Below, in pieces: positions 14,111 to 44,839 of a stretch of DNA of 64,000 nucleotides; the first letter of the stretch is position 1, and each line of letters opens with the position of its first letter. The stretch covers positions 15,112 to 79,111 of the forward strand of contig JACRGD010000007.1 of the NCBI GenBank assembly GCA_016212525.1, in the 5' to 3' direction. The DNA comes from Candidatus Micrarchaeota archaeon. GTDB taxonomy: Archaea > Micrarchaeota > Micrarchaeia > Anstonellales > Bilamarchaeaceae. Below the pieces are notes generated by a model. The model saw only the letters and a program-made list of their open reading frames with translations, did no database searches and was not told where the DNA came from. Made by a program: the position numbers and the translations under genes.

Positions 14111-14863
14111 GTGGGCAAAACAAAAACAAGACCAGAATTAAGAGAGATTACACTCAGAGTCATAGAGGGGTTTAGAACCCAGATACCGGTACTAGATCTG
14201 ACAGTGAGTAGTAAAAAAGGCACTCGAAAAATCGAAAGAGAGGAAAAAGATAAGCTCGAAAAAGCGATAGAAACGGGCTGTCAAAAAGAGTTTCGGGGAA
14301 TAACTACAGAGATAAGTACACTAATAGCCAATGAATATGATGTAGGGGAAATTATCGTTCCACTCGTTAAGAGACTCAGAACAGAAACGGATCAAAGCAT
14401 AAGAAATCAAATTTTAATAAACCTCATCAAAATAGAGAGAACTGGCCACAACACCGGAATGGCAAGCGGAGACATTACAGAACTCATAAATGCATATGGA
14501 GAGGACACACGATATTTGGCAGTTAATTATTTTCTTGAAAGAGTTCGAAACGGACATAGAATAAACCTGCAGATCGAAGAACTTTGCATTGCGGCATTTG
14601 ACTTGTCTCACCAAATACGAGAAATAGCATTAGAAACTCTCAAAAGATATGGGTCGAGAGGCGCGTTTGAGAAACAGGAAATAGAAGACGCATTAGAAGA
14701 TCCAAGAGTACTTACTAAAAAGGACGAACTAGTCAAAAATATCAGAAATAGCATGGAACGCGATCCAAAAGACATCAAACCAGCAGAACTCCAACGAGTC
14801 ATAAAAGAAACAATAAAGGCGGAGACAGTAGGACGAATTGAAGAACTACTCGAGCGAGAATAA
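14111..14863 (+). CDS. hypothetical protein (possibly HEAT-like)
   Basis: 250-aa ORF; its stop codon lies inside the first unit of the 24-bp tandem array. Confidence 0.45.
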   Translation: MGKTKTRPELREITLRVIEGFRTQIPVLDLTVSSKKGTRKIEREEKDKLEKAIETGCQKEFRGITTEISTLIANEYDVGEIIVPLVKRLRTETDQSIRNQILINLIKIERTGHNTGMASGDITELINAYGEDTRYLAVNYFLERVRNGHRINLQIEELCIAAFDLSHQIREIALETLKRYGSRGAFEKQEIEDALEDPRVLTKKDELVKNIRNSMERDPKDIKPAELQRVIKETIKAETVGRIEELLERE

Positions 14864-14990
14864 ATCTCGCATACTTCGCGAGAATAAATCTCGCATACTT
14901 CGCGAGAATAAATCTCGCATACTTCGCGAGAATAAATCTCGCATACTTCGCGAGAATAAATCTCGCATACTTCGCGAGAATAAATCTCGC
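14855..14990. repeat. perfect 24-bp tandem repeat, 5 full units plus a 16-nt partial unit, made of alternating palindromes
   Basis: unit CGAGAATAAATCTCGCATACTTCG repeated without a single mismatch; arms TCTCGC and GCGAGA alternate with loops ATACTTC and ATAAA; independently visible as (ARFILAKY)x5 in the antisense ORF track. Confidence 0.9.
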
Positions 14991-15030
14991 TCGTAGAGCC
15001 ACTGGAGCTGCGAACGAAGTTAAGTTATGA

Positions 15031-15154
15031 AGCCCCCGGAGGGATTTGAACCCCCGGCCTCCTCCTAGCTCGATACTTTTTATAATAAGTTTTTGATTAA
15101 ACTTTTTCCTAAAAAGTTTACGAGAGAGGCGCTCTACCACTGAGCTACAGAGGC
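15031..15154 (-). tRNA. tRNA-Thr (anticodon CGU) with ~52-nt intron at position 37/38
   Basis: hand-folded: acceptor GCCTCTG/CGGGGGC, D-arm GCTC-AGTGGTA-GAGC, anticodon stem CCTCT/GGAGG with loop CTCGTA|A, T-arm GGGGG-TTCAAAT-CCCTC; intron begins with a 9-bp AAACTTTTT/AAAAAGTTT hairpin. Confidence 0.8.
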
Positions 15155-17059: not shown

Positions 17060-17452
17060 AACCAATAAAGGTAGGCGAAGCAAAGTAAAGTGACTCCGAG
17101 GCTACGCGAGTCGACTAACCAGAGGAGATATTGACTAAGCAGATGTCTCAATTGTCATTTAGTAGGTCCTTGGATTTTTGACCAACCACTCGCCTAGCGA
17201 TCTGCAAAATCGCGACGGTTTAGCTACGCAGACATGAATGTCTGCTTGCGACTTTTGTAATAAGAGAAAAGAAGTCAAAAGTAATGTGACGCCACGCGAA
17301 ACGGCCTGAGCGAAGCAATGGACGCGAAGCTAAGCGAACGAGCGTATGACTAGGCGTTCTGAATGAGTTGGAGTGATGATTTGGTAATTCCTCAGGGCTT
17401 TGACCAACCCTTTTACTTTGCCATAATTTATGCTGAAGTCAAAGTAATGGGT
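17060..17452. repeat. about 400-nt GC-rich structured non-coding region between tRNA-Ser and tpiA (GAGCGAAGC family, multiple hairpins)
   Basis: contains GGCGAAGCAAAGTAA (identical 15-mer at 15370), CTGAGCGAAGCAATGGACGCGAAGCTAAGCG, two TTTGACCAACC copies, a perfect 8-bp hairpin GCAGACAT-GA-ATGTCTGC, hairpin GCGAT-CTGCAAA-ATCGC, and box C (GTGATGA) plus box D (CTGA) like elements; no ORF. Confidence 0.4.
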
Positions 17453-17587
17453 CGCCGACACCAGGATTTGAACCTGGAATCCACAAGGGATCAGTTCACC
17501 TGAACGTTTTTTAGTTCGTTTTTAGTCAAGCTTTTTCCTAAAAAACTTGTTCGAGACTGACGCACTACCGGGTTATGCGATGTCGGC
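17453..17587 (-). tRNA. tRNA-Ser (anticodon CGA) with ~54-nt intron at 37/38 and long variable arm
   Basis: hand-folded: acceptor GCCGACA/TGTCGGC, anticodon stem TCAGT/ACTGA with loop CTCGAA|A, 13-nt variable arm, T-arm CCAGG-TTCAAAT-CCTGG, discriminator G. Confidence 0.8.
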
Positions 17588-17648
17588 AAAAGTATAGGAA
17601 TTATGTGAAGAGAAGGGATTTAAATCGCTTAGGATCCCACAAACAAGA

Positions 17649-32899: not shown

Positions 32900-32964
32900 A
32901 TTTAAATATTATTGTTACAACATTATCACTCTGATCATTCTTAGATTATAGCGAGCCCCGAGAG

Positions 32965-33078
32965 TTAAGGGGGGATGAGCTAACCTGGTATGCTGCTAGC
33001 TTTGGGACGCAAGCCGGTCTTTAGATCGGCGAAGCTGCAAAAGAGCTAGTTGTCTGTGTTCAAATCACAGTCCCCCCA
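32965..33078 (+). tRNA. tRNA-Pro (anticodon UGG) with ~37-nt intron at 37/38
   Basis: acceptor GGGGGGA/TCCCCCC, anticodon stem CTAGC/GCTAG with loop TTTGGG|A, T-arm CTGTG-TTCAAAT-CACAG, discriminator A; the intron contains GATCGGCGAAGCTGC; coordinates uncertain by ±4 nt. Confidence 0.75.
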
Positions 33079-33124
33079 ATCTTCTTATGAAAAACAAAAC
33101 CTTCGCGACCCTTCGAGATCGCTC

Positions 33125-33159
33125 GGTGTGTCTGTGTTCAAATCACAGTCCCCCCAATC
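33125..33159 (+). repeat. 31-bp direct duplicate of the tRNA-Pro 3' end (T-arm plus acceptor), att-site-like
   Basis: TGTCTGTGTTCAAATCACAGTCCCCCCAATC occurs at the tRNA 3' end and again ~78 bp downstream; visible as SVFKSQSPQS twice in ORF 33050..33598. Confidence 0.8.
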
Positions 33160-33189
33160 ATATTTAAATCGACCGAGTCAAAATGAGAA

Positions 33190-33598
33190 CATGAATCAAA
33201 ATGATATGTTTAGACTCGTACCAGTCTACATGTACGGACTATTTTTTGGAATTGTAATTTTTCTCTCAATGAATGGCCCACTAGGAATCCCTGCATTTTC
33301 CTTTGAAAATATCATTAACCCATTCTTAGGAGAAAAGGGAAATATAGGAATTGCACTTTTTGCAGTTAGCATAATTGAGGTAGTGATATTAGACAAACTG
33401 TTTCTACCAGAGGCACTTAAAGATCAGAAGAAAGAGATGGTCGTCATAGGACTAGCTGAAATGCCAGGACTACTAGGTTTTGTGTTTTGCTTCTTAATTC
33501 GCAATCCGTGGCCATTTCTTGCGTTTGCAGTCATCGGACTTTGCAACTACGCATATGTGTTAATGAAACTCAGAAACGAGAGCCAAAGAACAGAATAG
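33190..33598 (+). CDS. small membrane protein (paralog 1 of a tandem pair)
   Basis: ORF 33050..33598 has an N-terminal extension that just translates the tRNA duplicate; likely start is MNQNDMFRL; 4 TM helices; C-terminal IRNPWPFLAFAVIGLCNYAYVLMKLR is shared with the next gene. Confidence 0.5.
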
Positions 33599-34083: not shown

Positions 34084-35097
34084 TCATAAATCCGATTTTT
34101 GATCAAAAAGAAGTTCCGCAACGACCGCCCTGTGATCTGAAGTAGGAGTCGGATCAACTTCATATCTTGCAAATTGAACCCCTGGACCTGCAAGGAATAT
34201 GTAATCTAAAGTTCGATTTGGTGCTACTGCCGGATAGGTATGAAATCCATCAAGAAGATCAGGGTTTGCATTGGCAGTTAGGTCAAATGGTGGAATAAAT
34301 AGTTTTTGTTCGATGATGTGCTGCATTGCAGGATCATGAGTATAGTCATCAGGATCGCCAGATAAATGACTGGGAAATGCCATTAGTCTTGAGGAGCGGG
34401 GTATCGCATTAAAGTCGCCGGCAATAACCATTGGCATATCAAAGCGTCTTAAAGCGCTTCGCACCTTTGTATGTAGTTTTTGTATCTGCCAGCCCCTGCC
34501 AAACGTATTTCCCCGAAGTTCAGGACCAAGATAGCGGATGATTTGATAAAATATGTCACTTAGGAGATGGGTACTATATACCCCAAAATCAGGACCGTCA
34601 GGAGGAGAGACCATTACAAAGGTAAAACCTTTGCATTCATTGAGCAATTTGACAAGATAATTCACCGGGAGATGAGGAGAAAAGGATTGACCAAAATCAT
34701 AACTGGTGTGTTCAGAAAGCGGATATTTAGAGATTACAACAGTACCAAGATCTCGCCCAAGCACAGTGTTTGAAACAAACGATTTCAACACACCTGGAAG
34801 CGGACTTCTTAGATGCGAAGACCCATGATAAAAACTAAAACCCAGACGATGAACAAGATATTCAAGTTGATTTATTCCTGCAGTCCTAAGAGAGAAAAAA
34901 TCAACCTCCTGCAGACACACAACCACTGCGCCCGAGGCAATAATTCTCTCGGCAATAACATCCAGATTTCGAAAAACTTGTTTTTTTGTTATCGGTTGAC
35001 GCAATTCTCCAAAAGGCCCATGAGCAGTATTGATGTTTTGAGAATATAGAATCACTCTGCAGGGCTCTTTGGCAAGTGCCATAATAGATAAGTACAA
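34084..35097 (-). CDS. endonuclease/exonuclease/phosphatase (EEP) family protein
   Basis: 337 aa; VVCLQEVD and TSDHRAV catalytic motifs of the EEP fold. Confidence 0.7.
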   Translation of the reverse strand: MYLSIMALAKEPCRVILYSQNINTAHGPFGELRQPITKKQVFRNLDVIAERIIASGAVVVCLQEVDFFSLRTAGINQLEYLVHRLGFSFYHGSSHLRSPLPGVLKSFVSNTVLGRDLGTVVISKYPLSEHTSYDFGQSFSPHLPVNYLVKLLNECKGFTFVMVSPPDGPDFGVYSTHLLSDIFYQIIRYLGPELRGNTFGRGWQIQKLHTKVRSALRRFDMPMVIAGDFNAIPRSSRLMAFPSHLSGDPDDYTHDPAMQHIIEQKLFIPPFDLTANANPDLLDGFHTYPAVAPNRTLDYIFLAGPGVQFARYEVDPTPTSDHRAVVAELLFDQKSDL

Positions 35098-44080: not shown

Positions 44081-44839
44081 TTATCGCTCGAGTAGTTGAT
44101 CAATTGTCGCCCGCATTGTCCCGATCGGCTGTGCTCCGATAATTGGAACGACATCCCTGCCATCTCTGCGGGCAATAAAGAAATAGGGAGTCCCATCGAC
44201 TCCGATCGATTTGCCGTAATTAATATCGGACTGGATCTTAGATATCCCATCTTCTGAGTTAATACAGATGTCAAAGACACTCCGATTTAGACCTATTTCG
44301 CTCGCCCAAACCTTAAAGTCATTGACAGTTATCGGATAGGTACTAAGGCCCAATTGAGCCTGCTTATCGTAAATGATATTATGCATCTGCCATTGCTTGC
44401 CCTGCAACTTTGCACATTCAACAGCCTGAGCGGCACCCATTGCACCTGGATGAATATTAGTATAGGGGAAATTACGATAGACCAGTTCTAGTTTACCTTT
44501 GTTGACATAATCAGCAGTTAAATTTGGCAGAACCAAAGTCGTGAATCTTCGACAAAAGGGGCATTGATAATCGGAGAACTCAACCAGAACCACAGGAGCA
44601 GATGCATTACCCATACGCATGTCTCCCCTGATAAGCTCGCTGACGTTTATATTTGGACCAAATTGAGAAATCGGAACAACTCCCACAGCAGAGGGATTAG
44701 GAGAAGAATTTAGATTAGAAAGTGATGAGTTTGGATTTGTAGGCGAGATATTCTTTGAGCCTGAATTTTGAGAAACACAACCAAATCCAATTATGAAAAC
44801 CAATAACACCGCCAGAACAATGACCTTTTTCATAAACAA
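44081..44839 (-). CDS. DsbA/thioredoxin-fold thiol:disulfide oxidoreductase with N-terminal membrane anchor
   Basis: 252 aa; N-terminal TM helix; CPFC active-site motif (SDYQCPFCRRF). Confidence 0.7.
   Translation of the reverse strand: MFMKKVIVLAVLLVFIIGFGCVSQNSGSKNISPTNPNSSLSNLNSSPNPSAVGVVPISQFGPNINVSELIRGDMRMGNASAPVVLVEFSDYQCPFCRRFTTLVLPNLTADYVNKGKLELVYRNFPYTNIHPGAMGAAQAVECAKLQGKQWQMHNIIYDKQAQLGLSTYPITVNDFKVWASEIGLNRSVFDICINSEDGISKIQSDINYGKSIGVDGTPYFFIARRDGRDVVPIIGAQPIGTMRATIDQLLER

Follow-up and report, generated by a model that had tools for sequence, protein, structure and literature searches.

The gene for tRNA-Pro(UGG) occupies positions 32969-33078 (+) of the 64-kb stretch of Candidatus Micrarchaeota DNA analysed here, referred to below as the window, and was read by hand as an intron-bearing gene. 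Upstream of it lie the genes for GMP synthase, VIT1, Nop5, a metallophosphoesterase and a GNAT acetyltransferase, and it is followed by genes for two small membrane proteins, an EEP-family protein on the opposite strand, a histidine operon, Cdc6/Orc1 and several large domain-less proteins. GC content near the locus is unremarkable. An earlier reading of this DNA from its letters and open reading frames (the sequence-only reading) had described the two membrane proteins as tandem paralogues, which agrees with the 29% identity we find between them (E=5e-22), and had placed an EEP-family gene downstream, which we recover as a 337-aa minus-strand protein (34084-35097) matching Pfam Exo_endo_phos (E=2.8e-18). 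The conserved membrane protein beside the tRNA gene has a C-terminal NPW...LPF motif and no Pfam family. Genes in the window with Pfam matches are housekeeping genes, such as those for MCM, Trm5, a class I aminoacyl-tRNA synthetase, triosephosphate isomerase and primase subunits. No integrase had been seen within 2 kb of the tRNA gene, and a search of Pfam domains extends this to the whole 64-kb window, which holds no integrase, excisionase, transposase, Cas1, PolB, viral or other mobile-element gene. The features on which the analysis turns are the following, R1 and R2 denoting the two copies of a direct repeat.

32900-32907, + strand: TATA-like box ATTTAAAT, putative promoter upstream of tRNA-Pro (read from sequence)
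32969-33006, + strand: tRNA-Pro exon 1, comprising the acceptor 5' strand GGGGGGA, the D arm, the anticodon stem 5' strand, the anticodon TGG and G37 (hand parse; ARAGORN call on the spliced sequence)
33007-33043, + strand: tRNA-Pro intron of 37 nt at canonical position 37/38; forms a bulge-helix-bulge and contains the inner hairpin GCCGGUC-UUUA-GAUCGGC (precursor RNA fold; splice test)
33044-33078, + strand: tRNA-Pro exon 2, ending on the discriminator A73, CCA not encoded (precursor fold; splice test)
33051-33081, + strand: R1, repeat copy 1, running from the last 3 nt of the variable loop through the T arm and the acceptor 3' strand to A73 and the first 3 bases of the trailer (ATC); attL-like (sequence comparison)
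33082-33128, + strand: spacer of 47 bp, AT-rich in its left 20 nt and GC- and CpG-rich in its right 27 nt, unrelated to both flanks (alignments versus shuffles; composition)
33129-33159, + strand: R2, repeat copy 2, an exact duplicate of R1 without the tRNA 5' part; attR-like, at the ancestral position beside the membrane-protein gene (sequence, synteny)
33162-33169, + strand: TATA-like box ATTTAAAT adjoining R2, with the ATG 29 nt further on; putatively promotes a leaderless mRNA (read from sequence)
33191-33598, + strand: small membrane protein of 135 aa, HY990_02335, the conserved right-hand neighbour of tRNA-Pro, which marks host DNA to the right of R2 (homology, synteny)

An intron-bearing tRNA-Pro gene

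Removal of positions 33007-33043 leaves a spliced 73-mer that ARAGORN calls as tRNA-Pro(tgg) with a perfect cloverleaf, its acceptor stem being GGGGGGA/TCCCCCC, its anticodon stem CTAGC/GCTAG and its loop TT-TGG-G, followed by the intron. When folded, the precursor forms a cloverleaf whose anticodon helix is extended, U32-G35 (UUUG) pairing with the intron sequence CAAA in a central 4-bp helix that is flanked by the 3-nt bulges G36-G37-A and A-G-A38. The gene is an archaeal tRNA gene with a canonical bulge-helix-bulge intron, and the earlier assignment as an intron-containing tRNA-Pro is borne out by both the precursor fold and the call on the spliced sequence. ARAGORN run without introns does not see the gene and neither does Rfam, while the Ala(ggc) with a long variable arm that ARAGORN -i returns for the locus is a mis-parse, as the spliced sequence is tRNA-Pro(tgg). 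The position of the TATA-like box at 32900-32907 implies a tRNA-Pro leader of roughly 35-40 nt, should this box serve as the promoter.

Two more intron-bearing tRNA genes in the window, both on the minus strand, go unseen by default ARAGORN. Parsed by hand, the gene at 15031-15154 is tRNA-Thr(CGU) and that at 17450-17588 is tRNA-Ser(CGA); ARAGORN -i gives Thr(cgt) for both. Their introns, each roughly 50 nt, are homologous (41 nt at 78% identity, 15075-15115 versus 17504-17544), so that two different tRNAs share a related intron. Directly 3' of tRNA-Thr(CGU), and likewise on the minus strand, lies a perfect 24-bp tandem array (14854-15014) of about 6-7 units of GCGAGAATAAATCTCGCATACTTC, each with a GCGAGA/TCTCGC hairpin. 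This could be a terminator array. A contig of the Logan assembly introduced below breaks within it, and a 25-nt inverted match to its edge is found at 44081-44105. As a practical point, default tools miss or mis-call intron-bearing tRNAs and tRNA fragments in DPANN genomes.

The direct repeat and its spacer

Two copies of the 31-mer TGTCTGTGTTCAAATCACAGTCCCCCCAATC, identical at 31 of 31 positions, lie on the + strand, one at 33051-33081 and the other at 33129-33159. The sequence-only reading had reported an exact duplication of the T arm and acceptor 3' strand some 78 bp downstream, with only about 50 bp between the copies; the measured values are 78 bp from start to start and a gap of 47 bp. 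A third copy is absent from the 64-kb window even when up to 3 mismatches are allowed, and none of 100 dinucleotide-preserving shuffles matched the 31-mer. The first base of the repeat is the second one of the 4-nt variable loop (position 45); the repeat then takes in the whole T arm (CTGTG-TTCAAAT-CACAG) and ends 3 nt past A73. Zero differences over 31 nt weakly bound the age of the repeat, to below about 0.1 substitutions per site. R2 has no 5' half of its own in either the spacer or the rest of the window, which removes one objection raised beforehand, namely that the second copy might belong to a second, diverged tRNA gene.

Since the source is a short-read MAG, in which the copy number of the 78-bp period is not readable from the assembly, the repeat might reflect an assembly problem, either a collapsed longer (R-S)n array, with R the repeat and S the spacer, or a chimeric join of strain variants via the shared 31-mer. 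An independent assembly is available from Logan (k=31, run SRR12113407), in which the locus is split over two contigs, one ending at 33004 and the other starting exactly at 33130. A unitig is expected to start at the latter position if two different bases precede the 31-mer at 33129-33159; the reads therefore contain the repeat. The former lies in the tRNA-Pro anticodon and is due to 31-mers that recur in other Micrarchaeota tRNA-Pro genes, those of 32975-33007 being identical in four of the related loci described below (L006, L008, L015 and L025). We infer that the branch at 33004 was created by a co-occurring relative; the isolate name of L008 (an NC_groundwater isolate) suggests that it comes from the same sampling project as this MAG. 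Tempting as it is to see the contig end at 33004 as a second anomaly, we rejected this, shared tRNA k-mers being its cause, and the break illustrates how conserved tRNA k-mers fragment metagenome assemblies. tRNA k-mers held in common with co-occurring relatives thus do disrupt assembly at this gene, which favours an artefact. Against it, repeat, spacer and repeat together measure just 109 bp and would fit within one Illumina read, as well as within the larger k-mers of the MAG assembly; the spacer is unique and has R on both sides, so that any molecule bearing it has the R-S-R structure; the Logan contig begins exactly where a true repeat would make it begin; and the 31-mer is common to none of the relatives fetched. 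We consider an assembly artefact unlikely as the cause of the repeat; a longer (R-S)n array reduced to two copies in the assembly is conceivable.

The spacer is a composite in its base composition. Its left 20 nt have 25% GC, and its right 27 nt have 63% GC and 5 CpG, a density (at least 5 CpG per 27 nt) that is reached by only 0.2% of 27-nt segments of this 42%-GC sequence. In composition the right half departs from the ordinary intergenic DNA around it and gives the spacer a foreign look. Aligned locally with the tRNA 5' part plus intron, with the upstream flank and with the flank after R2, the spacer scores at the level of shuffles (p = 0.49, 0.54 and 0.74, respectively). Being unrelated to either flank, the spacer excludes a simple tandem duplication, in which the sequence between the copies should be homologous to one of the flanks, as well as a decayed second tRNA or a decayed copy of the intron. 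A diverged intron or tRNA 5' part was rejected on the same alignments, and the hexamer AGATCG that the spacer shares with these is a chance match. The spacer contains no GGGGGGA acceptor strand; the 64-kb window has no further 5' piece of this type, no second copy of the spacer and no complement to it of at least 11 nt. Terminal inverted repeats are absent from the spacer, whose ends match at 4 of 15 bases.

An AT-rich stretch of 20 nt, which might be a promoter, followed by 27 GC-rich nt directly before a tRNA piece would also be compatible with the 3' half of a split tRNA gene. R2 with the sequence upstream of it might be an independently transcribed 3' fragment of the Nanoarchaeum type, serving for example another proline isoacceptor and joined via the GC-rich leader to a 5' partner that could sit outside the window. 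Split and tri-split tRNAs of Nanoarchaeum equitans and Caldivirga maquilingensis share with this locus an orphan 3' fragment that follows a GC-rich stretch, and the lineage here is a DPANN one with flexible tRNA splicing: the epsilon2 splicing endonuclease of Micrarchaeota is of broad specificity, disrupted tRNA genes are numerous in them (PMC5829648), and this window alone holds three intron-bearing tRNAs. The locus differs from those systems in that a complete gene with the same 3' part adjoins R2, lying 47 bp upstream, and in that neither the 5' partner nor the complementary trailer is found in the window. Identity with the intact gene ends inside the variable loop, where R2 begins, and not at 37/38 or another known split position, and none of the 19 syntenic relatives discussed in the next section carries such a piece. 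When the spacer plus R2 was considered as a structured RNA, its fold did not stand out from those of shuffled sequences (z = -1.22; the whole putative transcript gave z = -0.79) and Rfam gave no match, and this candidate was rejected. A functional spare 3' piece is, on balance, very unlikely. An orphan copy joined in trans to a 5' piece from outside the window, which would bring Nanoarchaeum-type split tRNAs, with a break point in the variable loop, to the Micrarchaeota, is a slighter prospect again.

The locus in related genomes

For comparison, 25 loci were fetched from Micrarchaeota MAGs via alignment of Nop5, whose identity of 45-61% marks them as distant relatives. Protein searches with the two flanking genes gave a GNAT homologue of 42% identity as the nearest, and with no relative above this value a strain-level comparison is impossible. 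In 19 of the 25 loci, a tRNA-Pro(UGG) gene lies 0-3.5 kb downstream of Nop5, phosphoesterase and GNAT (a few loci being without one of these genes), with a tRNA body near-identical to that studied here. A homologue of the first membrane protein directly follows tRNA-Pro in five of these 19 (L005, L006, L012, L014 and L016), at a distance of 11-141 nt, from which it follows that the order GNAT, tRNA-Pro, membrane protein is ancestral. In the present genome 34 nt separate R2 from the start codon of the membrane-protein gene, which is within the range of the relatives and places R2 at the ancestral position of the tRNA end.

None of the 19 relatives has a second tRNA-Pro tail, as judged by a 22-mer allowed up to 3 mismatches, and in none of them does an exact 13-mer duplicate from the last 40 nt plus trailer of tRNA-Pro occur. 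The sequence-only reading had named a duplication shared by relatives as an observation that would speak against it; the 19 syntenic relatives have one tail each. With a single tail in all 19, the 78 bp made up of the 47-bp spacer and one repeat are an insertion, between two conserved neighbours, that is private to this genome.

The comparison yielded several further observations. In three relatives the membrane-protein gene starts only 11-25 nt after tRNA-Pro (L012 7941-7953, L014 8109-8124, L016 8181-8207), a gap that leaves no room for a promoter. This suggests that tRNA and mRNA are co-transcribed in those relatives, the 5' end of the mRNA being made by tRNA 3' processing. The present genome, unlike these close-spaced relatives, has a TATA-like box between the tRNA tail and the membrane-protein gene (33156-33191), and has a second paralogue. 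Neither that second paralogue nor the EEP-family gene (34084-35097, -) has a counterpart beside tRNA-Pro in the 25 related loci, and the histidine operon is sited elsewhere in relatives (L016 and L026 have HisD upstream of Nop5); the stretch that follows tRNA-Pro has thus been rearranged in this lineage. In another related locus (L027 1426-1620), a unit of roughly 85-90 nt (aactttttctact...ttaaaagttgtcaaaacttcctgaggggagcgtacggtt) is present in 2-3 tandem copies directly downstream of tRNA-Pro, the tRNA tail not being included in the unit.

The tRNA-Pro(UGG) intron is polymorphic among the syntenic loci. It is absent in most relatives and measures 37 nt here, the other introns being 79, 117, about 122 and 199 nt long, all at or near position 37/38; the intron-bearing genes are those of L005 (8044-8240), L009 (7319-7590), L014 (7920-8109) and L022 (8034-8187), as against 15 other relatives. 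The introns of L005, L014 and L022 have the motifs GGCAAAAGCCTCGG..AAAGCCCTGAGG in common, and these shared motifs may point to a small RNA encoded there.

Origin of the second tRNA tail

The structure invites comparison with the attL/attR pairs of archaeal integrative elements, among them those with SSV- and pTN3/TKV-type integrases and the 'gene capture' remnants of Sulfolobus. The locus shares with these a direct repeat that reproduces the 3' portion of a tRNA gene exactly and reaches just past the gene end, T arm included, with one copy (here R1) completing an intact gene and the orphan adjoining the original host flank. It also shares with them an empty site in relatives, in the form of a single copy amid the same flanking genes (19 relatives, the membrane-protein gene being there in 5). 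Identity blocks at att sites in tRNA genes are reportedly of this very kind, typically including the T arm and running to the end of the gene. The locus differs in what lies between the copies. The Thermococcaceae examples have about 9-23 kb between the repeats (PMC9897764), against only 47 bp here, with neither an integrase or integrase fragment nor element genes in it; the 64 kb hold no recombinase Pfam domain, and the collections searched contain no matching attP partner.

This last result is a weak negative, the lineage itself being absent from those collections. Exact scans with the 31-mer and a 21-mer of viral (IMG/VR), GTDB genome and JGI metagenome contigs, where this genome and close relatives are absent, gave no match. 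A degenerate pattern of the tRNA-Pro tail returned five unrelated matches from IMG/VR, which are tRNA arrays of phages or att fragments that belong to other tRNAs, and blastn of 33040-33175 against GenBank phages and PLSDB plasmids gave no match. In a frame check of the reconstituted attP for an integrase of the SSV type, 2 of 6 frames are open, but over 125 nt only.

Site-specific integration would have produced the present arrangement as follows. A circular element whose attP exactly matched the 28 final bases of the tRNA and the 3 trailer bases would have recombined with the tRNA-Pro gene, the crossover probably falling at the symmetric T stem-loop (CTGTG-TTCAAAT-CACAG). Integration would have restored a functional tRNA and duplicated 31 bp, such that R1, which now completes the gene, arrived with the foreign DNA and the original host tail was displaced to the far end of the element, beside its original flank, where it would be today's R2. 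A later deletion would then have taken nearly all of the element and left 47 bp, in which case the spacer represents the fused element ends, one AT-rich (left) and one CpG-rich (right). The recombinase, the element and the deletion of the element are what we infer from the arrangement. The sequence-only reading had likewise taken the duplication for a scar of site-specific integration into a tRNA gene. Geometry and synteny agree with that claim, and neither a duplication in relatives nor a second tRNA 5' half turned up to contradict it; evidence of the element itself was not found. Of the two forms in which the claim was put, an excised element that left tandem att sites behind falls away, since site-specific excision restores a single site, and a remnant of the element is the viable one.

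In archaea and bacteria, partial tRNA genes are described as arising pervasively from mobile-element integration (PMC9897764). Within the phylum such integration is poorly documented: a 2026 survey of 1,356 Micrarchaeota genomes recovered no provirus (PMC13573593), and DPANN viruses are reported to be largely lytic (PMC12647753), which together lower the prior for an integration scar. It is also improbable a priori that one internal deletion should take more than 99% of an element and leave both repeats in place; precise loss via recombination between the repeats should far outnumber such events. A degenerate scar of mobile-element integration, a reading based on geometry and synteny, is the most likely of the explanations considered for the duplicated tRNA-Pro tail, but with these two points, and with no surviving feature of an element, we put its probability no higher than about 0.5.

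The same circumstances lend some weight to an insertion made without any recombinase. A double-strand break or a replication error just 3' of the tRNA could have been repaired by template switching or illegitimate recombination, with 31 bp copied from the tRNA end close by and 47 bp of filler from elsewhere added. No integrase or element exists anywhere in the window, no proviruses are known in the phylum (PMC13573593), the insert is tiny (78 bp), and one event suffices, versus integration followed by near-total deletion. The junctions, however, have no microhomology (left AGT/TGTC versus GTG/TGTC, right AATC/TTCT versus AATC/ATAT, the slash marking the junction), the 64-kb window contains no source for the filler, and the duplicated block is the usual att part of a tRNA gene and ends just past it, which random repair would not favour. 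Insertions of this kind by recombinase-independent repair or template switching have, to our knowledge, not been characterised in archaea, and we regard such an origin as possible but doubtful.

The target-site duplication of a casposon, or of another transposon, has a precedent at the same type of gene. In Aciduliprofundum boonei the casposon is inserted right at the 3' end of an intron-containing tRNA-Pro, the casposase recognising the T-loop region of that gene (PMC5137440). The details differ: there the duplication measures 15 bp and overlaps the tRNA by 5 bp, leaving the T loop outside (PMC5137440), whereas the 31 bp found here cover the whole T arm and do not lie beyond it. The spacer, with 4 of 15 terminal bases matching, lacks the terminal inverted repeats, and the window has no casposase, neither Cas1 nor PolB being encoded in it. 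Measured against the 14-15 bp duplication, inverted repeats and Cas1 plus PolB that characterise such insertions (PMC5137440), a casposon at tRNA-Pro is largely refuted by the geometry, and we hold this class of explanation to be extremely unlikely. Some mechanism other than those discussed, be it integration scar, repair, assembly, split tRNA or casposon, has a small but appreciable chance of being the true one.

The structure is probably inert today, the tRNA being complete with R1 and the membrane-protein gene having its own TATA-like box after R2. If the duplicated tail is an integration scar, it is a fresh instance of a well-known kind of feature. It would then be a small piece of evidence for site-specific integration into tRNA genes in Micrarchaeota, possibly the first trace of it, and would supply a concrete att sequence with which to find the element; otherwise, the repeat would be a neutral curiosity.
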